Shown: one piece after another, positions 9,295-56,671 of the stretch
How positions within the stretch are numbered: the stretch's first letter is position 1
How the letters are laid out: each line of letters opens with the position of its first letter
NCBI GenBank assembly: GCA_964016885.1
Contig: OZ024741.1
Span: forward strand, 322,958,001 to 323,022,000
Reading direction: 5' to 3'
Length of the DNA: 64,000 nt
Source: Eledone cirrhosa
Lineage: Eukaryota
Notes under the pieces: model-generated
The model's database searches: none
What the model was told of the DNA's origin: nothing
The model's input: only the letters and a program-made list of their open reading frames with translations
Program-made: the position numbers and the translations under genes

Positions 9295-10430
9295 CTGTGG
9301 TGATAGTGGTGGTGGCGGTGTTGTTGCTGTTGTTATTGCTGTTGTTGATAATAGTGGTGGTGGTGGTGGTGGTAGTGACACTGTTGTTGTGGTCGTTATG
9401 TTAGCTGTTGTTGCTGTTGTTATTGCTGTTGTTGATAATAGTGGTGGTGGTGGTGGTGGTAGTGGTGGTGGTAGTGACACTGTTGTTGTGGTCGTTATGT
9501 TAGCTGTTGTTGCTGTTGTTATTGCTGTTGTTGATAATAGTGGTGGTGGTGGTGGTGGTAGTGGTAGTGGTAGTGACACTGTTGTTGTGGTCGTTATGTT
9601 AGCTGTTGTTGCTGTTGTTATTGCTGTTGTTGATAATAGTGGTGGTGGTGGTGGTGGTAGTGGTGGTGGTAGTGACACTGTTGTTGTGGTCGTTATGTTA
9701 GCTGTTGTTGCTGTTGTTATTGCTGTTGTTGATAGTGGTGGTGGTGGTGGTGGTTGTGGTGGTGGTGGTGGTGGTGGTAGTGGTAGTGACACTGTTGTTG
9801 TGGTCGTTATGTTAGCTGTTGTTGCTGTTGTTATTGCTGTTGTTGATAGTGGTGGTGGTTGTGGTGGTGGTGGTGGTGGTGGTAGTGGTAGTGACACTGT
9901 TGTTGTGGTCGTTATGTTAGCTGTTGTTGCTGTTGTTATTGCTGTTGTTGATAGTGGTGGTGGTGGTGGTGGTGGTTGTGGTGGTGGTGGTGGTGGTGGT
10001 AGTGGTAGTGACACTGTTGTTGTGGTCGTTATGTTAGCTGTTGTTGCTGTTGCTATTGCTGTTGCTATTGCTGTTGTTGATAATAGTGGTTGTGGTGGTG
10101 GTGGTGGTGGTGGTGGTGGTAGTGACACTGTTGTTGTGGTCGTTATGTTAGCTGTTGTTGCTGTTGCTATTGCTGTTGTTGATAATAGTGGTGGTGGTGG
10201 TGGTGGTGGTGGTGGTGGTGGTGGTGGTGGTGGTGGTGGTGGTGGTGGTGGTGGTGGTAGTGGTAGTGACACTGTTGTTGTGGTCGTTATGTTAGCTGTT
10301 GTTGCTGTTGTTATTGCTATTGTTGATAATAGTGGTGGTGGGGTGGTGGTGGTGGTTGTGGTGGTGGTGGTAGTGGTAGTGACACTGTTGTTGTGGTCGT
10401 TATGTTAGCTGTTGTTGCTGTTGTTGCTGC
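9295..10430. repeat. Minisatellite: constant ~66-bp block separated by variable-length (GGT)n
   Basis: About 10 copies of agtgacactgttgttgtggtcgttatgttagctgttgttgctgttgttattgctgttgttgat. Confidence 0.95.
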
Positions 10431-10559: not shown

Positions 10560-13500
10560 CCACCAACACCAACACCGCCATCAACACTAACACTAACACC
10601 AAAACTATTACCACTAACACCAACACCACAACCATCACCACTAACACTAATACCAAAACCATCACCACTAACACCATCACCACTAACACTAACACCAAAA
10701 CCATCACTACTAACACCAACACCACAATGATCGCAACAACCATCACCTCTAATACTAACACCACCACCATGACCACTAACACCATCTCCACTACCATCTC
10801 CACTAAAACCAACACTACTAACACCAACACCACAATCATCACCACAACCTTCACCACTATCACCAACACCACCACCATCACCACTAACACCACAACCATC
10901 ACTACTACAACCAACACCGCAACCATCACCACTAACACTAACAGCACAATCATCACCACAACCATCACCACTAACAACAAAACCACCACCATCACCACTA
11001 ACACCACAACCATCACTACTAACACCAACACCACAACCAACACTACTAACACCAACACCACCACCATCACTACTAACATCAACACCACCACCATCACCAC
11101 TAACACCAACACCACAAGCATCACTACTAACACCAACACCACAACCATCACCACAACCATCAACACAACCATCACCACTAACACCAAAACCACCACCATC
11201 ACCACTAACACTAACACCTCAACCATCACTACTAACACCAACACCACAACCATCATAACAACCATCACCACTAACACCAACACCACCACCATCACCACTA
11301 ACACTAACACCAAAACCATCACCACTAACACCAACACTACAACCATCACCACAACCATCACCACTAACACCAACACCACCACCATCATCACTAACACTAA
11401 CACCAGAACCATCACTACTAACACCAACACCACAACCATCACCACTAACACTAACACCACAACCATCACCACTAACACCAACACAACTAACACCAACCAC
11501 TAACACCAACACCACTATCACCACTAACACCAACACCACTAACACCACCCACTAACACCAGCACCACCACCATCACCACTAACATCAACAACACTAACAC
11601 CAACACCACCAACACCACTAACTCCAACACCACCATCACCACTAACACCAACACCACTAACACCAACCACTAACACCATCACCACTAACACCAACACCAC
11701 TTACACCAACACCACTAACATCAACACCACCATCACCACTATCACCAACACCACCAACACCACTAACATCAACACCACCATCACCACTAACACCAACCAC
11801 TAACACCAACACCACTATTACCACTAACACCAACACCACTAACACCAACACCAGCATCACCACTAACACCAACACCACTAACACCAACACCACTAACACC
11901 AACACCAATAACATCAACACCACCATCACCACTAACACCAACACCACCGTCACCACTAACACCAACACCACTAACATCAACCACTAACATGAACACCACC
12001 ATCACCACTAACACCGACCACTAACACCAACACCACTAACACCATCACCACTAACACCAACACCACTAACACGATCACTACTAACACCAACCACTAAAAC
12101 CAACACCACTAACACCAACACCACTAACACCAACCACTGACACCAACACCACTAACACCAACACCAATAACACCAACACCACTAAAACCAACACCACTAA
12201 CACCAACCACTAACACCAACACCACTAACACCAACACCACTAAAACCATCCACTAACACCAACACCACTAACACCACCACCATCACCACTTCCACCAGTA
12301 CCATCACCACTAACACCACCACCAGCACCACTAACACCACCACCATCACCACTAAGACCACCAACACCACCACTAAGACCACCAACATCACCACTAACAC
12401 CACCACCATCACCACTAACACCACCACCATCACCACTAACACCGCCACCATCACCACTAACACCACCACCATCACCACTAACACCACCACCATCACCACT
12501 AACACCACCACCATCACCACTAACACCAGCATCACCACTAACACCACCACCATCACCACTAACACCACCACCATCACCACTAACACCACCACCATCACCA
12601 CTAACACCACCACTAACACCACCACCATCACAACTAACACCACCACAATCACCACTAACACCAGCATCACCACTAACACCACCACCATCACCACTAACAC
12701 CACCACCATCACCACTAACACCACCACTAACACCACCACCATCACAACTAACACCACCACAATCACCACTAACACCAGCATCACCACTAACACCACCACC
12801 ATCACCACTAACACCACCACCATCACCACTAACACCACCACTAACACCACCGCCATCACCACTAACACCACCATCACCACTAACACCACCACCATCACCA
12901 CTAACACCACCACCATCACCACTAACACCACCACCATCACCACTAACACCACCACCACTAACACCACCACCATCACCACTAACACCACCACCATCACCAC
13001 TAACAACACCAGCATCACCACTAACACCACCACCATCACCACTAACACCACCACCATCACCACTAACACCACCACCACCACCACTAACACCACCACCATC
13101 ACCACTAACACCACCACCATCACCACTAACACCACCACCACCACCACTAACACCACCACCATCACCACTAACACCACCACCATTACCACTAACACCAGCA
13201 TCACCACTAACACCACTACCATCACCACTAACACCGCCACCATCACCACTAACACCGCCACCATCACCACTAACACCACCACCATCACCACTAACACCAC
13301 CACCATCACCACTAACACCACCACCATCACCACTAACACCGCCACCATCACCACTAACACCAGCATCACCACTAACACCACCACCATCACCACTAACACC
13401 GCCACCATCACCACTAACACCACCACCACCACCACTAACACCACCAGCATCACCACTAACACCACCACCACCACCACTAACACCACCACCATCACCACTA

Positions 13501-16500
13501 ACACCACCACCATCACCACTAACAAAACCACTAACACCACCACCATCACCACTAACACCACCACCATCACCTCTAACACAACCACCATCACCACTAACAC
13601 CGCCACCATCACCACTAACACCACCGCCATCACCACTAACACCACCACCATCACCACTAACACCACCACTAACACCACCACCATCACCACTAACACCACC
13701 ACCAGCACCACTAACACCACCACCATCACCACCTACACCACCACCATCACCACTAACACCACCACCATCACCACTAACACCACCACTAACACCACCACTA
13801 TCACCACTAACACCACCACTAACACCACCACCATCACCACTAACACCACCACCATCACCACTAACACCACCACCATCACCACTAACACCACCACCATCAC
13901 CACTAACACCACCGCCATCACCACTAACACCACCATCACCACTAACACCACCACCATCACCACTAACACCACCACCATCACCACTAACACCACCATCACC
14001 ACTAACACAACCACTAACACCACCACCATCACCACTAACGCCACCACCATCACCACTAACACCACCACCGCCACCACCACTAACACCACCACCATCACCA
14101 CTAACACCACCACCATCACCACTAACACCACCACCATCACCACTAACACCACCACCATCACCACTAACACCACCACCATCACCACTAACATCACCACCAC
14201 CATCACCACTAACATCACCACTAACATCACCACTAACATCACCACCACCATCACCACTAACACCACCACCATCACCACTAACACCACCACTAACACCACC
14301 ACCATCACCACTAACACCACCAACATCATCACTAACACCACCACCGCCACCACCACTAACACCACCACCATCACCACTAACACCACCACCATCACCACTA
14401 ACACCACCACCATCACCACTAACACCACCACCATCACCACTAACATCACCACCACCATCACCACTAACATCACCACTAACATCACCACTAACATCACCAC
14501 CACCATCACCACTAACACCACCACCATCACCACTAACACCACCACCGCCACCACCACTAACACCACCACCATCACCACTAACACCACCACCATCACCACT
14601 AACACCACCGCCATCACCACTAACACCACCACCATCACCACTAACACCACCACCATCACCACTAACACCACCACCATCACCACTAACACCACCACCATCA
14701 CCACTAACACCGCCACCATCACCACTAACACCACCACCATCACCACTAACACCACCACCATCAACAACACCAGTATCATCACCCCCGTCACCACCACCAA
14801 CACCACTATCATCACCACCATCAACAACACCAGTATCATCACCCCCGTCACACCACCAACACCACTATCATCACCACCAACAACAACAACACCAGTATCA
14901 TCACCCCGTCACCACTAACACCACCACCATCACCACTAACACCACCACCATCACCACTAACACCACCACCACCACCACTAACACCACCACCATCACCACT
15001 AACACCACCACCACCACTAACACCACCACCATCACCACTAACACCACCACCATCACCACTAATACCACCACCACCACCACTAACACCACCACCATCACCA
15101 CTAACACCACCACCATCACCACTAACACCAGCATCACCACTAACACCACCGCCATCAACACTAACACCACCACCACCACTAACACCACCACCATCACCAC
15201 TAACACCACCACCATCACCACTAACACCACCACCACTAACACCACCACCATCACCACTAACACCACCACCATCACCACTAACACCACCAACATCACCACT
15301 AACACCACCACCACCACCACTAACACCACCATCACCACTAACACCGCCACCATCACCACTAACACCGCCACCATCACCACTAACACCACCACCACCACCA
15401 CCACTAACACCGCCACCATCACCACTAACACCACCACCACCACTAACACCGCCACCATCACCACTAACACCACCACCACCACCACTAACACCACCGCCAC
15501 CACCACTAACACCGCCACCATCACCACTAACACCACCACCACCACCACTAACACCACTACCACCACCACTAACACCACCACCATCACCACTAACACCACC
15601 ACCATCACCACTAACACCACCACCATCACCACTAACACCACCACCATCACCACTAACACCACCACCATCACCACTAACACCGCCACCATCACCACTAACA
15701 CCACCACCACCACCACTAACACCACCACCACCACCACTAACACCGCCACCATGACCACTAACACCACCACCACCACCACTAACACCACCACCACCACCAC
15801 TAACACCACCACCATCACCACTAACACCACCACCACCACCACTAACACCACCAACATCACCACTAACACCACCACTAACACCATCACCATCACCACTAAC
15901 ACCACCACCATCACCACTAACACCACCACCACCACCACTAACACCACCACCACCACCTCTAACACCACCACCATCACCACTAACACCGCCACCATCACCA
16001 CTACCACCACCACCACCACCACTAACACCACCACCATCACCACTAACACCACCACCACCACCACTAACACCACCACCACCACCACTAACACCACCACCAC
16101 CACCACTAACACCACCACCATCACCACTAACACCACCACCATCACCACTAACACCACCACCACCACCACTAACACCACCACCACCACCACTAACACCGCC
16201 ACCATCACCACTAACACCACCACCATCACCACTAACACCACCACCACCACCACTAACACCACCACCACCACCACTAACACCACCACCATCACCACTAACA
16301 CCACCACCACCACCACTAACACCACCACCACCAGCACTAACACCACCACCATCACCACTAACACCGCCACCATCACCACTAACACCACCACCATCACCAC
16401 TAACACCAGTACCATCACCACTAACACCACCATCACCACTAACACCACCACCATCACCACTAACACCACCATCACCACTAACACCACCACCATCACCACT

Positions 16501-19090
16501 AACACCACCACCATCACCACTAACACCACCACCATCACCACTAACACCACCACCATCACCACTAACACCACCACCACCACCACTAACACCGCCACCATCA
16601 CCACTAACACCACCGCCATCACCACTAACACCACCACCATCACCACTAACACCGCCACCATCACCATTAACACCCACCACCATCACCACTAACACCACCA
16701 CCATCACCACTAACACCACCGCCATCACCACTAACACCACCACCATCACCACTAACACCACCACCATCACCACTAACACCGCCACCATCACCACTAACAC
16801 CACCACCATCACCACTAACACCACCGCCATCACCACTAACACCACCACCACTAACACCACCACCATCACCACTAACACCACCACCATCACCACTAACACC
16901 ACCACCATCACCACTAACACCGCCACCATCACCACTAACACCACCACCATCACCACTAACACCACCACCATCACCACTAACACCACCACCATCACCACTA
17001 ACACCACCACCATCACCACTAACACCACCATCACCAGTAACACCACCACCATCACCACTAACACCACCACCACCACCACTAACACCACCGCCATCACCAC
17101 TAACACCACCATCACCACTAACACCACCACCACCACCACTAACACCACCACCACCACCACTAACACCACCACCACCACCACTAACACCACCACCATCACC
17201 ACTAAAACCGCCACCATCACCACTAACACCACCACCACCACCACTAACACCACCACCACCACCACTAACACCACCACCACCACCACTAACACCACCACCA
17301 TCACCACTAACACCGCCACCATCACCACTAACACCACCACCACCACCACTAACACCACCACCATCACCACTAACACCACCACCACCACCACTAACACCAC
17401 CACCATCACCACTAACACCATCAACATTTGCAGCATCACCACCACTAACACTTCTACCACCACTTACACCAATACCCCCAACATTACTTTCAACACCATC
17501 GTCATCACCACCTACACCACTTACCACTAATACCACTAGCATCCACAACCACCCCATCACCACCATCAACAACACCAGTATCATCACCCCCGTCACCACC
17601 ACCAACACCACTATCATCACCACCATCAACAACACCAGTATCATCACCCCCGTCACCACCACCAACACCACTATCATCACCACCAACAACAACAACACCA
17701 GTATCATCACCCCCGTCACCACTAACACCACCACCATCACCACTAACACCACCACCATCACCACTAACACCACCACCATCACCACTAACACCACCACCAC
17801 CACCACTAACACCACCACCATCACCACTAACACCACCACCACCACTAACACCACCACCATCACCACTTACACCACCACCATCACCACTAACACCACCACC
17901 ACCACCACTAACACCACCACCATCACCACTAACACCACCACCATCACCACTAACACCACCCCCACCACCACTAACACCACCACCATCACCACTAACACCA
18001 GCATCACCACTAACACCACCACCATCACCACTAACACCACCACCACCACTAACACCACCACCATCACCACTAACACCACCACCATCACCACTAACACCAC
18101 CACCACTAACACCACCACCATCACCACTAACACCACCACCATCACCACTAACACCACCACCATCACCACTAACACCACCACCACCACCACTAACACCACC
18201 ACCATCACCACTAACACCGCCACCATCACCACTAACACCACCACCACCACCACTAACACCACCACCATCACCACTAACACCACCACCATCACCACTAACA
18301 CCACCACCATCACCACTAACACGACCACCATCACCACTAACACCACCACCACCACCACCATTAACACCACCACCATCACCACTAACACCACCACCATCAT
18401 CACTAACACCACCATCATCACCACTAACACCACCACCATCACCACTAACACCACCACCATCACCACTAACACCACCACCATCACCACTAACACCACCACC
18501 ACCACCACTAACACCACCACCACCACCTCTAACACCACCACCATCACCACTAACACCGCCACCATCACCACTACCACCACCACCACCACCACTAACACCA
18601 CCACCATCACCACTAACACCACCACCACCACCACTAACACCACCACCACCACCACTAACACCACCACCATCACCACTAACACCACCACCATCACCACTAA
18701 CACCACCACCACCACCACTAACACCACCACCACCACCACTAACACCGCCACCATCACCACTAACACCACCACCATCACCACTAACACCACCACCACCACC
18801 ACTAACACCACCACCACCACCACCACTAACACCACCACCATCACCACTAACACCACCACCACCACCACTAACACCACCACCAAAATCACTATCATCACCA
18901 CCATCAACAACACCAGTATCATCACCCCCGTCACCACCACCAACACCACTCACTATCATCACCACCATCAACAACAACACCAGTATCATCACCCCCGTCA
19001 CCACCACCACACCACTATCATCACCACCATCAACAACAACACCACTATCATCACCCCCGTCACCACCACCAATAACACTATCATCACCAC

Positions 19091-19122
<32 letters not shown>

Positions 19123-19570: not shown

Positions 19571-20069
19571 ATACGAGTTGCAACATCACTGGTACCAAGC
19601 TGCATTCGCCTTTGCCTTTCACTTGGACAACTACGGGGACGTGAAACTAGCATCCATGGGTGACTGATGGTCTTTCATAAAACATATTTCCCAGACTTAC
19701 TCTACGTTCTGAGTTCCAATCTTGTATAGTCAAGTATTACGGTTGACTTAATATATCTATCCTAGATGTGAATAGAATTATAATAGAAAACCTAGACTCG
19801 ATCAGCTTTTAGTGTTTATCTCATTAAGAGAGATAGAGTCAGGGAGAGCCTGACATTTTCTACCACATGATTACTTTTAGATGATTAATAATTATTTCGT
19901 ATATAAAGTTTCAGCCATACCTGTCTTGATTATATATTTACTTAATTAAGATTTAAATAAGTATTGGTTTCTAATTTTGGTGCTGCACTGTCAGAAATAT
20001 ATCGAGGTACAGACTATTTCATTGCTTCCCAGTAGTTAATTTATTAGAACCCGTATGGATGAAAATGGT

Positions 20070-20345
20070 GGAGGCGCGTAGCCTAGTGGCTAGGATGCTG
20101 GACTTACGATCATAATGTCGTGGGGCGATTTATGGACTGGATAGCTTCTTAAACAAAATACTTCATTGCACGTTCTTCAGTACACTCGACTGAAAATGAG
20201 TACCGGCATTAACTGGAAGTTAACCTTGCAATGGACTGGCATCCTGTCCGAGGGGTAGTCTTGTATTCATGGTCGCTTAATGCCAATGAAAACCGGGATA
20301 ACCACCGGACTGATGAGCCTCCGTTCTTGGAATAGATTTTAACTT
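20070..20345 (+). mobile_element. tRNA-derived SINE with V/MetaSINE-like body
   Basis: Head gaggcgcgtagcctagtggctagg; body aaccttgcaatggactggcatcctgtccgaggggtag and gaaaaccggg...ccggactgatgagcc. Confidence 0.6.
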
Positions 20346-20384
20346 TTTAACTCTTTAACATTTACATTACTCTACTATGTATGT

Positions 20385-20720
20385 AAATAGGGAGACACGT
20401 AGCAGGCTTTGTTTACAAACAGCTAGCGAATTTGAAAATTAGGTGGTAACATGTGCTTATGCCGTATTTGACTAAATTTGCTAGCCGTTTGTAATCAAAA
20501 CCTGCTTTGTGTCACCTTATTTATATAAATATATATATATACCTGCTATGGTTATATAGCTTCTAATTGAAGGAAGGGAGCATCGGTGGCGTGTTGGTGT
20601 AATGGTAACACATTGGTCCGGCAAACCAATGATGTGGGTTCGTATCCCATCTACGTCAATACTCATTCATTTTTTTCCATTCAGAGAGTTTTTGAAAAAT
20701 CCCAACTAACAGACTTACTC
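20385..20720 (+). mobile_element. tRNA-like-gene-carrying mobile unit, copy 1, with inverted 5' segment
   Basis: Homologous throughout to 55112-55502; 20385-20435 is inverted relative to 20474-20522. Confidence 0.8.
20588..20658 (+). tRNA. tRNA-like cloverleaf (loop CC-GGC-AA), probably not a translational tRNA
   Basis: Stems ggcgtg/tacgtc, gtgt/acac, ttggt/accaa, gtggg/cccat; A and B boxes; T-run ~12 nt downstream; lacks U33. Confidence 0.55.
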
Positions 20721-22134
20721 GACTATATTTTCATGGTAAAGGCTTTATCTCACATAATATGGAATCTATGAGATTTTGATGATGTTATTGTTTATTTTGA
20801 GAACAATACCTTAATGTCAGTATGAGTGACTGATTATGGCCGGTTTGAACAGAAAGAGGTGAAAGAATTCTAGCCTGATATGACCGGTTTAAATGCTAAG
20901 TTTGGGCTGAGTTTATTTAAACACATTAAGGGTTATATTGCGGTGTCGCTAGAACGCTGGATAAAATGTGTTACAGAAGGTGGTTAGAGATGTGTGGAAA
21001 GTACACACTTTTTTTTATATCAAACCGATGGTTGTAGTAAAAGGTTTATAGAATATATTTAGACAAAAAGGATTTAATAATATACAGTGTGACACAAATG
21101 AACCTTTGAATTACAGGTACTGTCCATCCGACGGGAATTCTAAGAGTGTACGTCTACCTAATCTCCTTCACAAGGTGTGGATCAACCAGAATTTATGGTC
21201 AAGACACTTGCTGAAGATGTCATATAGTTTAGTTGAACTCAAAACCTAATGATTGTGGAGCAACCTTTAACAATTCGACCTGTTTTTATTAACTTGGTGG
21301 GCTCAAAAATGACTGAATCAACTTGATAATTACGTTAAGGGTACATGTGGCAATAGAAAATTAACGTTTATTCACCAGTTGATAGAAACAACTAAATTTT
21401 CATCGTCGAAATCAACGAAGGATCCATCATCATCACCATTCATCCATCCATAAGTCCTTAACTCCTAATGGAATCGTAGGGACCTCGAGATGACATACAG
21501 CGTGTTAAACATTTAAACTTTGCGGAGTCCATCTCTCGCTCGGTCTGAACACAGCTAATTTTTTCCGAAGAAAGCTGGAGAGATGGAAAGATATAAAAGA
21601 AGAATAGACACCGCTATGAAAAGCAAAGCTGAACACGCAATATTTGAACTCAAAGTGCAGAGAGCCGGAACGAATTCCGTAAAGTATTCTATCCAATATT
21701 CTAACGACTCTACCAATTTCGTCGCCTTCAACATCACCAAGTAAATGATAAACATGAGTAAACATATATTTCTCAAACCGCACTACCACATTTTAAACGA
21801 ATACGTAAGGATGCATTGGACAATGTAAACCTAGACATATGAAACAAAAACGGGTCGGTCACGACTCGCTCGTGACATCTGTAGACGTCGGATAATGCTG
21901 ATGTAAATATTTGATTATAAGTAATAGGTCACTCAGGATTGATCTGAGGCTAAACAATAACAACAACAATATCACCACCACCAACAACAACAACAATATA
22001 TGGTCTATATTTCTGTAAATTTCATATAATGCTGACATATAGTCAAGAGTCGGAGCATAGACTTGTATGATGGTAATGTTCTGTGGTTATGATCCTGCTT
22101 GATGTTGGTGTACGTTAACGCTGGAGTCTGACTG

Positions 22135-45049: not shown

Positions 45050-45350
45050 ATTGGCAGTGTTAGTAGAGGGTCGAACGCCATGATTTGTAGCATAAAGTTA
45101 TGGTCCTTTACGATCTGAGTTCAAATCCAGCCGAGGTTAACTTTGCCTTTCCTCCTTACGGGGTCGATAAAATAAAGTACCAGTAATGCACTGAGGTAAT
45201 TGCTAGCTTTGTGCCAGAATTAGAAACAATTATATATGAGTTCAAATCCCGCCGAGGTTAGCTTCACCTTTCATCCTTACGGGGTCGATAAAATAAAGTA
45301 CCAGTGATGCACTGGGATAATTGGTGGCTTTGTGCCAAAAGTGGAAACAA
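45050..45350 (+). mobile_element. Two tandem SINE family C copies
   Basis: Family C body twice, separated by tatata. Confidence 0.85.
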
Positions 45351-45908
45351 TTATATATATACATGTGTGTGTGTGTTTGTAAAAAAAGGTAAAGACACCC
45401 CACCCTCCTTCGGTCACGAATGACCATGGGATTTGCACCTAGAAAAGTTCCCCCTCTGAGGCACAAGTCCGGGCAACACAAGCGAGTAGAATGTCAGTAG
45501 TGTCAGGCATGAAGAGATCTTTTTGGTACATCACAAAGGAACACAGTAATTCGAATGACCATCATACTATACATACACAAGGTATGTCAGTAGGTACCCG
45601 AACTAGGTAGCCAATTGGTGTTCACAAGTATATAGAAAGGTATCACAAAGGCACAGGCCTCACTCAAGTACATGTGGTTAATATATAATATTGCTGAGTG
45701 AAACAAGTAAATACATTCAAGACATAAAAAGAAGCCATGCATAAGCAGGTTTAGGTCAGTGTGCGATAGAATTTAAGCAGTCTCGATGTATTAGTTGTTA
45801 TAAAAGTTGTTATAAAGTATTTGGTAAAGTTATTACTCATGCATAATTAGCAATACAAGCAGGACTAATTGTTTACATATCCAATATATTATACATATAT
45901 ACATACAT

Positions 45909-54152: not shown

Positions 54153-54771
54153 CTGATGGTAAATTAATAGAAAGCAGTTCGTTATCCTTCCGATAAATGG
54201 GAACGGCTACTGTATGGGAGTGTGTATAACCAGACATTTTTATTATATATCTTTGTAGGCACTCCCTATCTGCATGTATTTAGAAGCATTTGCTTTATGT
54301 ATTTTGTATACAGAGGTGCTAAGACGTTAAAGATATTTACCAGCACTCCTCTGCCATCCACATTAATAGCACTATTAAAATGGGAATGAGATGGTCTTGA
54401 AACGTTAATAAAAGTTATCGTATCAAACAAAATATACATAACTAAGGAAAACATTAAAATCCTTAATTAAACAGAATAAACACGAGGACAGTGGTGTCTT
54501 TAATATAACAACTTAAAGACAAAAGCTGCTCCTTAATCATTCTAATATATATATATAAGGCGTGTGGCTGAGTGGTTAGAGAATTGGATTCGCAATCGTA
54601 AGGTTGTGAGTTCGATTCCTGGACCAGGCGATGCGTTATGTCCTTGAGCAAGACACTTTATTTCACGTTGCTTCTTCTACCTGGAGTTGCGACCGATAGA
54701 TAGTATTAGCAATTGGAAAGACCAACGGAAACATTGTTCCCTCGGTCCGATTTGACGAAAGCCGATCGTTC

Positions 54772-54823
<52 letters not shown>

Positions 54824-54885
54824 TATATATATGTGTGTGTATGTGTGTGTGTTTAGATATATATATATATACACCCACACACACG

Positions 54886-54922
<37 letters not shown>

Positions 54923-54997
54923 CCGGGAGATTCCAACAGAAATGGTCGCATTCTTTAAGGGTATGTCAATATTTATTTATAAAACTGATCTATATTA

Positions 54998-55062
54998 TAT
55001 TTTATCTGATGAAAGCACACCATAATTTAACTTGGTGTCCTTGAAATATGTATAATGAAATA
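54998..55062 (+). ncRNA. Type-I minimal hammerhead ribozyme, family H1 copy c
   Basis: tattttat-CTGATGA(55006-12)-aag c acacca..tggtgt c ctt-GAAA-T ATGT ATA^-atgaaata. Confidence 0.8.
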
Positions 55063-55111
55063 AATATGGTTTTATAAATATAGTTTCCATTTGTTAATAT
55101 ATCGTATACAC

Positions 55112-55502
55112 AGTAACATGTGCTTACGCCGTATTTGACTATATAGAATTAGTCTGTTAGTTGGGATTTAAAAAAAAAACCTCTGAATGAAAAAAAGAGG
55201 ATGAGAACTGACGTACATGGGACACGAACCGACATCTTTGGTTTCCCGGATCAATATGCTACCATTACATCAACACGCTACCCATGCTTCCTTCCATTCA
55301 ATTAGAAATTATATAACCATAGCAGGTATATAAATATGGAGATACAAAGGAAGCTTTCTTTACAAAGGGCTAGCGAATTTGAAAATTAGGTAGTAACATG
55401 TGCTTACGCCGTATTTGACTACATAGAATTAGACCTAACTAACAGACTAATTCAATGTAGTCAAATACGGCGTAAGCACATGTCACTACCTAATTTTCAA
55501 AT
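55112..55502 (-). mobile_element. tRNA-like-gene-carrying mobile unit, copy 2 (1.15 units plus inverted segment)
   Basis: 41-bp direct repeat at 55112 and 55392 (period 280); inverted piece at 55434-55502. Confidence 0.8.
55209..55279 (-). tRNA. Decayed tRNA-like cloverleaf (loop CC-GGG-AA)
   Basis: Colinear with 20588-20658; several stem mismatches. Confidence 0.45.
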
Positions 55503-55671
55503 GTGTGTGTGTGTGTGTGTGTGTTGTACCTACATATATAAGTAATGTGTTTTGTGAAAGACCTGTAGACACCAATGCATGTAAGTTTCCCCCACTTCAG
55601 GCAAATAGGGATATATATATATATATGTATGTATACGTACATTCATATATGTATACAGACGTACAGTAGCA

Positions 55672-55711
<40 letters not shown>

Positions 55712-55779
55712 AACGAACAAAGCGGGCGTTATAATAAGCGTCCGCTAAACTGATACGTACATATATGTATGTGTACCTG

Positions 55780-56671
<892 letters not shown>

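Follow-up and report, generated by a model that had tools for sequence, protein, structure and literature searches.

Two loci in a 64,000-nucleotide stretch of the Eledone cirrhosa genome (hereafter the window) carry a tRNA-like module inside a short repeat unit, which raises the question of what kind of element this is and which enzymes spread it. The original prediction had described a circularly permuted mobile unit that was copied by Penelope-type machinery from a circular or long tandem template, with tRNA-processing enzymes as possible cutters of the monomers. The analysis reported here points to a dispersed, non-coding family of ~280 bp with a tRNA-like module that likely depends for its copying on the reverse transcriptase-endonuclease of Penelope-like elements (PLEs), acting in trans, and not on LINE enzymes, a reading to which we give a probability of about 70%. 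The family is likely a PLE hitch-hiker because its insertion scars match those of Penelope-like retrotransposons.

A reference unit of 280 bp, designated M, was defined as the reverse complement of 55112-55391; on this scale the tRNA-like module occupies about M108-180 and the T-runs about M195-222. An arm was defined as a collinear run of matches on one strand, and insertions consist of one or two arms each. The features of both copies and of the neighbouring repeats are collected in Table 1.

Table 1. Features of the two copies of the unit and of the adjoining repeats; positions are those of the window.
Feature	Position	Strand	Unit coordinates or detail	Basis
Copy 1, inverted 5'-truncated arm	20376..20477	-	~M248-280 + M1-66	BLAST map, family-profile nhmmer (20444-20376, 20477-20446)
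Copy 1, direct arm, tRNA-like module inside	20474..20721	+	~M12-248	BLAST map, nhmmer
TATA-like octamer	20552..20559	+	29-36 nt upstream of tRNA-like start	Read from sequence
tRNA-like cloverleaf	20588..20658	+	Anticodon GGC, C33, T58	Rfam tRNA, 53.7 bits
Two T-runs	T7 20670-20676, T5 20689-20693	+		Read from sequence
Copy 2, direct arm	55112..55432	-	Partial M240-280, then head-to-tail full M1-280	
Copy 2, inverted 5'-truncated arm	55433..55505	+	~M227-280 + M1-18	
Older host repeat split by copy 1	Left part 20068..20375, right part 20724-20899	.		Empty-site paralogs
Separate, younger short repeat family, outside the element	54925..55110	+	End meets copy 2 3' end	

Copies 1 and 2 could be aligned over ~300 columns comprising the cloverleaf, ~110-130 bp upstream of it and ~60 bp downstream, which together with ARAGORN and Rfam bears out the claim that they share a cloverleaf, an upstream TATA-like stretch, a T-run and 3' sequence. 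The 41-bp direct repeat with a period of 280 that had been reported for copy 2 was also found, at 98% identity; the unit thus runs back into itself after 280 bp. An inverted 5' segment is present at both loci, as had been stated, and was recovered in the BLAST map and by nhmmer. In copy 1 the inverted arm has a canonical 3' end of class A (the two end classes are described below), which faces the left flank, and the tRNA-bearing arm stops at about M248 with a non-canonical 3' end, running in the alignment straight onto the host repeat. In copy 2 the direct arm has a class-B 3' end at 55112, the 3' end of the inverted arm faces a (GT)n tract, and the inverted repeat has 56-nt arms that are 96% complementary. 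Copy 1 is the less typical family member and copy 2 the typical one. Matches to Rfam microRNA precursors at both loci correspond to the fold-back arms and to (TA)n hairpins.

The repeat that houses copy 1 has 3209 first-look candidates genome-wide. In two of its paralogs (L035 and L032) the BLAST matches to the left and right flanks are adjacent, lying 10 and 36 bp apart, and alignment with these paralogs places the insertion point in a short TATATA stretch. These two empty sites in paralogs identify copy 1 as a genuine insertion, and the claim that it interrupts another repeat and is therefore mobile holds; a TSD is unreadable here because identity between the empty-site paralogs and the window is only 75-83%. 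Copy 2 had been said to abut an H1 ribozyme element. A separate repeat family does abut it, with 73 first-look candidates, of which 40 were scored at 93-100% identity (100% being the window's own copy) and whose members often start with a short inverted piece, but its ribozyme character was not confirmed, as the Rfam search showed no hammerhead at either locus at E<=5. Rfam detected neither a hammerhead nor any other ribozyme in the element, whether at the gathering score over the window or at E<=5 over 19800-21200 and 54300-56300; the sole hammerhead-type match, a weak HH9 (17.6 bits, E 0.52), lies ~700 bp from the element.

The extent of the family was determined by searching the genome (~3.0 Gb) with a 251-bp query, which returned 1856 first-look candidates; 40 were scored, on many contigs, and all main matches had E < 1e-64. 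Probes of 25 nt, allowing up to 2 mismatches, gave 1071 matches for M250-274, 1172 for the tRNA D-arm and 253 for M67-91, and the reversed controls of all three gave 0. The counts of 1071 and 1172 are not comparable as a measure of truncation because the 3' probe contains two CpGs, so that the only usable gradient is the fall to 253 upstream, which sampling attributes to 5' ends at M55-M88. The candidate number, the thousand-scale probe counts and the empty controls show that the window loci are not a segmental duplication, and the dispersed family thus rules out the simple duplication that had been considered as an objection to mobility. Among 31 full units, identity to their own majority was 92-94% throughout, and the tRNA region was no better conserved than the remainder. 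All 60 loci that were chosen by short probes (40 + 20) contain only the ~280-bp unit, and no coding sequence was found attached to the arms. A second, classical SINE sharing a common tRNA head was considered as a source of the tRNA-probe matches and rejected, as 20 of 20 such loci proved to be the ~280-bp unit.

Arms were mapped in three samples drawn from this family of >1000 loci. Sample 1 consisted of 29 loci with the best near-full-unit matches and is biased toward long copies; sample 2, which is unbiased, consisted of 40 loci, drawn in the order of the list of exact M250-274 probe matches, and gave 71 arms; and sample 3 consisted of 20 loci from exact matches of the tRNA probe. Pooled, the samples comprise 89 loci and 155 arms.

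Whether the module is a tRNA was assessed on these loci. ARAGORN made 29 tRNA calls on the 89 loci, 23 of them Ala-GGC, including the tRNA-Ala(GGC) of copy 1 (20587-20659), and the majority sequence of the family has an intact cloverleaf. The module of copy 2 (55209-55279) is decayed, scoring 28.3 bits in Rfam against a gathering score of 29. The TATA-like columns are kept in the majority of the 31 full units, which has T6 runs at both T-run places; in copy 1 the T7 run begins 11 nt past the tRNA end, and the T-runs at 20670..20693 are putative Pol III terminators. The module also contains A/B-box-like sequence, on a consensus that we take to be the standard one. In functional tRNAs U33 and A58 are universal. 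Among 48 aligned copies, C33 is found in 42 and T58 in 47, a combination that argues against a working tRNA. Variant anticodons, AGC among others, are present and are consistent with decay of the CpG at positions 33-34. The original prediction had also seen covariation in the D-stem; the change from G10-C25 to A10-T25 is real in copy 2, but it occurs in 1 of the 48 copies, and pairing in the cloverleaf does not exceed that of shuffles (89.3% against a shuffled mean of 89.3%, with 293 of 500 shuffles as high; 4 double changes against 3.6 expected), so that this support is withdrawn. The null result is uninformative about the master copy, since dead copies are not expected to covary. These results bear on the notion that both loci are fragments of a satellite, or of a segmental duplication, with a real tRNA gene. 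Such a gene would look complete, as this one does with its TATA-like stretch, cloverleaf and T-run, and its flanks would be common to both loci, but the frequent C33 and T58, the empty-site paralogs of copy 1 and the more than 1000 dispersed pieces on many contigs with varied flanks make the notion hardly credible.

The 3' ends of the arms fall into two classes. Of 155 arms, 64 end at M55-72 (class A, typically exactly after M66), 65 at M272-M22 (class B, typically near M10) and 26 elsewhere; 129 thus end at one of two fixed sites that are ~56 bp apart. The predicted free circular permutation is therefore not supported: the 5' ends vary and some arms wrap around the unit, but the 3' ends are fixed in these 129 arms. 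A (TA)n tract of at least 4 repeats lies within 35 bp beyond the 3' end in 38/64 class-A arms, 41/65 class-B arms and 2/26 others, against 92 of 1127 control windows in the sampled loci (8%); canonical 3' ends thus adjoin (TA)n in 79 of 129 cases (~61%). The corresponding counts for (CA)n are 11/64, 1/65 and 2/26, with 37/1127 control windows. Because most targets are microsatellites, TSDs are unreadable family-wide. The 3' ends are not A-rich, and the fold around the 3' start sites was no better than shuffles (z -0.31 for L099:1773-1942 and -0.23 for L099:1593-1942).

Arms frequently occur as head-to-head pairs with their 3' ends outward, in 28/40 sample-2 loci and 13/29 sample-1 loci. Mean identity over M205-280 was 0.86 between arms of the same locus (21 pairs) and 0.84 between random arms (399 pairs). 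Arms that share a locus are thus scarcely closer to each other than random ones, and an origin of both in a single event does not follow from these values. The inner breakpoints are different in every locus, and the pairs therefore do not derive from a single fold-back master. A DNA transposon of the fold-back or MITE type, with long TIRs and insertion at TA, would have explained why the outward ends are alike in many loci and why the targets are TA-rich; that the inner junction is unique to each locus, that the arms are of unequal length and often differ in end class, that 12/40 unbiased loci have no inverted partner, and that some arms continue head-to-tail make such a transposon very improbable. 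Of the fixed ends that the original prediction had named as its refutation, one half applies: those on the 3' side are fixed, but cut-and-paste TIRs are lacking.

The same ends bear on an ordinary tRNA-derived SINE, that is, a Pol III transcript copied by LINE enzymes. The tRNA-like module, the A/B-box-like sequence and the high copy number are what such an element would show. Its arms would be expected at the tRNA head, yet tRNA-containing arms begin mostly 28-58 nt upstream of the tRNA, at M50-M80 (13/22, sample 3). The tRNA is separated from the 3' ends by two T6-T7 runs, the 3' end takes two alternative forms and lacks an A-rich tail, and both arms of the head-to-head pairs have a canonical 3' end; LINE twin priming is not known to yield pairs with two canonical 3' ends. 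A SINE of this kind is decidedly improbable.

Craig et al. (PMC8557442) give as hallmarks of endonuclease-bearing PLE insertions heavy truncation at the 5' end, pseudo-LTRs (pLTRs) formed by partial tandems, an inverted and likewise truncated copy alongside, and an optional tail of 30-40 bp, with (TA)n among the targets. The assignment to a Penelope-type retroelement, which had been proposed from the two copies, is strengthened by the family, whose arms have fixed 3' ends and truncated 5' ends, lie head to head or in partial tandems, and sit in microsatellite targets. The family shows all of the structural hallmarks listed, departing from the published picture in its longer tail (~56 bp) and in the missing hammerhead.

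The 5' ends vary and are spread across the unit, and 12 of 64 sample-2 arms reach its start. A second cluster of 5' ends (M53-57, 7/105 arms; M66-80, 11/105 arms) is the natural start of the unit. It follows immediately on M66, the 3' end of class A, and here the family majority contains an additional short (AT)n run. Arms longer than one unit are in the minority (9/71 in sample 2), the longest of the 155 arms measures 496 bp, and upstream of unit position 1 lies unit position 280 with no foreign sequence.

Break-off of the arms was quantified by a survival count in sample 2. Arms were traced in the upstream direction from M280, provided that they included M270 or a later position, which left 64 arms and excluded 7 of 71. 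The 3' end of the tRNA is reached by 50 arms, its 5' end by 18 and the unit start (M67) by 12; in the preceding unit, 8 arms reach M50, 7 reach M1, 3 reach the 3' end of the upstream tRNA and 1 its 5' end. The 73-nt tRNA module is thus entered by 50 arms, of which 32 end within it, most of them at M119-139, from the D-arm to the anticodon stem, whereas the 100 nt before the tRNA contain the ends of just 14 of the 64 arms. Arithmetic on these counts gives a break-off rate per base that is ~six-fold higher in the tRNA module. The excess suggests that the tRNA domain lies within the copied RNA and hinders the enzyme, which may be due to its structure and perhaps to base modification; since the module behaves as a strong stop, it was likely folded in the template.

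These distributions speak against a retrozyme-like element whose circular or long tandem RNA is cut into monomers at the tRNA by RNase P and RNase Z. Head-to-tail wrapping in some copies, the missing hammerhead and the intact cloverleaf of the majority are compatible with it, and animal retrozymes are thought to depend on PLEs, as far as the accessible text of bioRxiv 10.64898/2026.07.22.740005 and PMC7229834 states. The expected enrichment of 5' ends is not found: among the 105 arms of samples 2 and 3, 2 start at the RNase P site (M108±4) and 1 at the RNase Z site (M181±4), against ~4 for each under a uniform spread, so that neither tRNA-processing enzymes as cutters nor a start at the tRNA head can be upheld. 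Nor do the 3' ends coincide with the tRNA; they are found 100-166 nt downstream of it. As many arms have their 5' end within the tRNA, the tRNA belongs to the copied RNA. The maximum arm of 496 bp among 155 compares with arrays of up to 62 units in the accessible part of PMC7229834, and two exact 17-mer anchors one unit (267-296 bp) apart gave 0 matches in the genome. A three-unit 11-mer probe returned only unrelated satellites of 36-48 bp among the matches listed (100 of 230), although this probe is too loose, its reversed control giving 222 matches. For circular RNA, a look-up of sequencing runs containing 55100-55510 listed no RNA run; three runs of unrecorded kind, all from one study, contain this stretch. 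The tandem master arrays for which the two-unit 17-mer and three-unit 11-mer probes looked were thus not found, and with 8 of 64 arms extending as far as M50 the claim of a circular or long tandem template is not supported; a retrozyme-like element is improbable.

The enzymes required by the preferred reading are abundant in this genome. A genome search with GIY-YIG (PF01541) gave 10595 candidates, and 150 of 150 that were scored lay above the cut-off. Among 8 long ORFs tested, 5 carry RVT_1 followed by a C-terminal GIY-YIG, 2 carry RVT_1 alone and 1 matched no family; in short PLE loci the GIY-YIG domain lies at the ORF C-terminus in 30/30. Intact-looking ORFs with RT and C-terminal GIY-YIG are common, an example being the 938-aa ORF with RVT_1 and C-terminal GIY-YIG in L074. 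An autonomous partner similar to the unit was sought with BLAST at word size 7 and with an nhmmer profile built from the 31 full units, and none was found among 50 PLE loci (30 short, 20 long) of >10000 candidates, all 50 being of the C-terminal-endonuclease type; the matches were TA-rich low complexity only (best E 0.023, high bias).

The abundance of PLEs also makes it necessary to consider that the unit is a pLTR or a run-off end of a protein-coding PLE and not a family of its own, the more so as PLE insertions most often take the form of short end pieces (PMC8557442). Position 1, however, is preceded by position 280 of the same unit, and among 51 free 5' flanks 0 of 30 cross-locus matches end at the arm boundary in both loci. 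Together with the 60 short-probe loci that contain the unit only and the 50 PLE loci that show no similarity, this renders a mere PLE end unlikely by a wide measure.

A course of events that would account for these observations can be outlined as follows. Copies with a partial upstream unit, which resembles a pLTR, may give rise to RNA of one to under two units, without a circle. The template RNA would more likely come from Pol II or from read-through than from Pol III at the tRNA promoter; the module is an unlikely template source because Pol III would terminate at the T-runs and not reach the sites where reverse transcription starts. The PLE protein would bind the unit RNA and nick the two strands of a target that is AT-rich or a microsatellite. 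Synthesis of cDNA would then start internally, at ~M10 or ~M66 and on either strand, giving the optional 56-bp tail, and reverse transcription would often halt early, in the tRNA fold. A purified Anolis PLE protein is known to cut and extend both DNA strands, to start reverse transcription from two internal sites whose spacing corresponds to the tail, and to prefer AT-rich DNA (Frangieh et al., PMC11167929), and in the accessible part of Arkhipova et al. (PMC3846280) pLTRs are sufficient for mobilisation in trans and can carry captured unrelated sequence between them. The element probably acquired the tRNA gene unit by capturing a Pol III gene of the genome together with its flanking sequence. 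Our best guess is that the module is such a captured Pol III gene unit, either a passenger or a local promoter or structure element. The fuller description, an undescribed SINE-like parasite in which a ribozyme-free ~280-bp unit with a whole tRNA-type gene is amplified by PLEs and its folded, perhaps modified tRNA domain impedes the reverse transcriptase, is offered more tentatively and may well be wrong in part.

SINEs are by definition parasites of LINEs, and to our knowledge the short hitch-hikers of PLEs are hammerhead-bearing retrozymes. In the literature searched, with subscription journals and Repbase outside the search, no published description of a tRNA-bearing, PLE-dependent short element was found. 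If the reading is true, a high-copy, ribozyme-free unit with a tRNA module and a PLE footprint would broaden the categories of both SINE and retrozyme, and the ribozyme would be dispensable for short PLE-dependent elements. Because the unit is short, each insertion keeps its start and stop points, and the family is thus a natural read-out of PLE reverse transcription that covers two start sites, priming on both strands and six-fold break-off in the tRNA fold, steps that have so far rested on one in vitro study (PMC11167929). Family copies can also contaminate gene annotation, since ARAGORN and Rfam call a tRNA and the fold-back arms score as microRNA precursors.

Canonical PLE pLTRs usually carry a hammerhead. 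Compared with PLEs (Penelope/Poseidon, Neptune, Nematis, Naiad), the family shares the truncated 5' ends, the partial copies placed head to tail, the neighbouring inverted copy that lacks its 5' part, the choice between two 3' ends and targets that are AT-rich or (TA)n; it differs in having no ORF, a unit of only ~280 bp, a tRNA-like module, a tail of ~56 bp against 30-40 bp, and no sequence link to a coding PLE in the 50 loci compared. With SINE2/tRNA elements it has in common the tRNA-like module, the A/B-box-like sequence, non-autonomy and high copy number, whereas its tRNA is not 5'-terminal and is followed by T-runs, its 3' end is neither LINE-like nor A-rich, and the shape of its insertions is PLE-like. 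The SMalpha element of Schistosoma has Pol III promoter boxes. It resembles the family in being short, abundant and SINE-like and has been linked to hammerhead-bearing repeats (cited in PMC8490949), but it has an active hammerhead, and Rfam found none in the family. The lack of a canonical hammerhead is shared with the Naiad clade, according to the accessible parts of PMC8557442. Animal non-LTR retrozymes are likewise short (150-450 bp), AT-rich, non-coding and thought to depend on PLEs, but in the accessible text of the sources cited above they have a type I hammerhead in each unit, which Rfam did not find in the family, and form dimers to tens of units and circular RNA, whereas the arms of the family measure less than two units and are known from DNA alone. 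Cassandra (5S) and Helenus/Ajax (tRNA-like), in the accessible part of PMC10886601, likewise have a small-RNA-gene module in the repeat of a non-LINE, non-autonomous retroelement; they possess true LTRs and primer-binding sites, whereas the family bears the footprint of a PLE.

The 5' break-off points of the dispersed element were found to cluster inside its tRNA-like module, at M119-139 of the 280-bp reference unit, among loci L093-L132 (sample 2). When these loci were combined with the 20 loci drawn with the tRNA probe (sample 3), this interval was the start of 21 of 105 arms, an arm being a run of collinear unit matches on one strand, and all 21 came from sample 2. In that sample, 50 arms entered the module and 32 of them terminated within it. 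The pile-up could have been produced by reverse-transcriptase stops at structure or modified bases, or, as another possible cause, by cleavage of the RNA in the D or anticodon loop.

Positions in the window of the features described in the text.
Feature	Position
GTG/GTT-rich arrays	9354-10425
Minisatellite	10560-19095
Host repeat interrupted by copy 1	20068-20375 and 20724-20899
First long hairpin	20387-20519
121-bp unit, two tandem copies	45116-45358
Young short repeat, separate family	54925-55110
Second long hairpin	55377-55502

Where arms lie head to head they form two long hairpins, which matched plant and animal microRNA-precursor models at up to 65 bits, all below the gathering scores; such hairpins are likely to be mistaken for microRNA genes in annotation. 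The host repeat split by copy 1, which the initial reading of the sequence took to be a MITE, belongs to an abundant family (3209 first-look candidates in a genome search), carries a CTGATGAG motif near 20311, and has internal tandem repeats of ~118 bp in some copies, for example at locus L033. No hammerhead was called by Rfam in either part of this host repeat.

Several tandem repeats were also observed. Among the matches listed for the tandem-unit probe was an array of ~36-bp period at G000:C9:10274071-10275557, in the species' own genome, whose unit resembles the 5' half of the tRNA-like module (D-arm to anticodon stem); the array would be a minisatellite derived from the tRNA-bearing element. 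The 121-bp unit opens with a T-arm-like stretch containing a GAGTTCAAATCC-type motif and is probably a fragment of a different tRNA-derived SINE. The 8.5-kb minisatellite (period 21/42/63 bp, about 400 copies of a 21-mer), across which several reading frames are open over hundreds of codons, lies just downstream of the GTG/GTT-rich arrays, which have a period of 99-198 bp.

Penelope-like elements are highly abundant in the Eledone cirrhosa genome: a genome-wide GIY-YIG search returned 10595 first-look candidates. Several open frames combining RT with GIY-YIG, 844-1096 aa in length, were present, and the elements that carry them may still be active.

The 3' end of copy 2 adjoins the end of the young short repeat, for which 73 first-look candidates were obtained; the 40 that were scored showed 93-100% identity, the 100% row being the window's own copy, and the unit length was about 183-186 bp. 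Rfam found no hammerhead in this repeat despite its CTGATGA motif. Many copies of the family start with an inverted piece of 30-57 bp, which again resembles the shape of Penelope-like elements.
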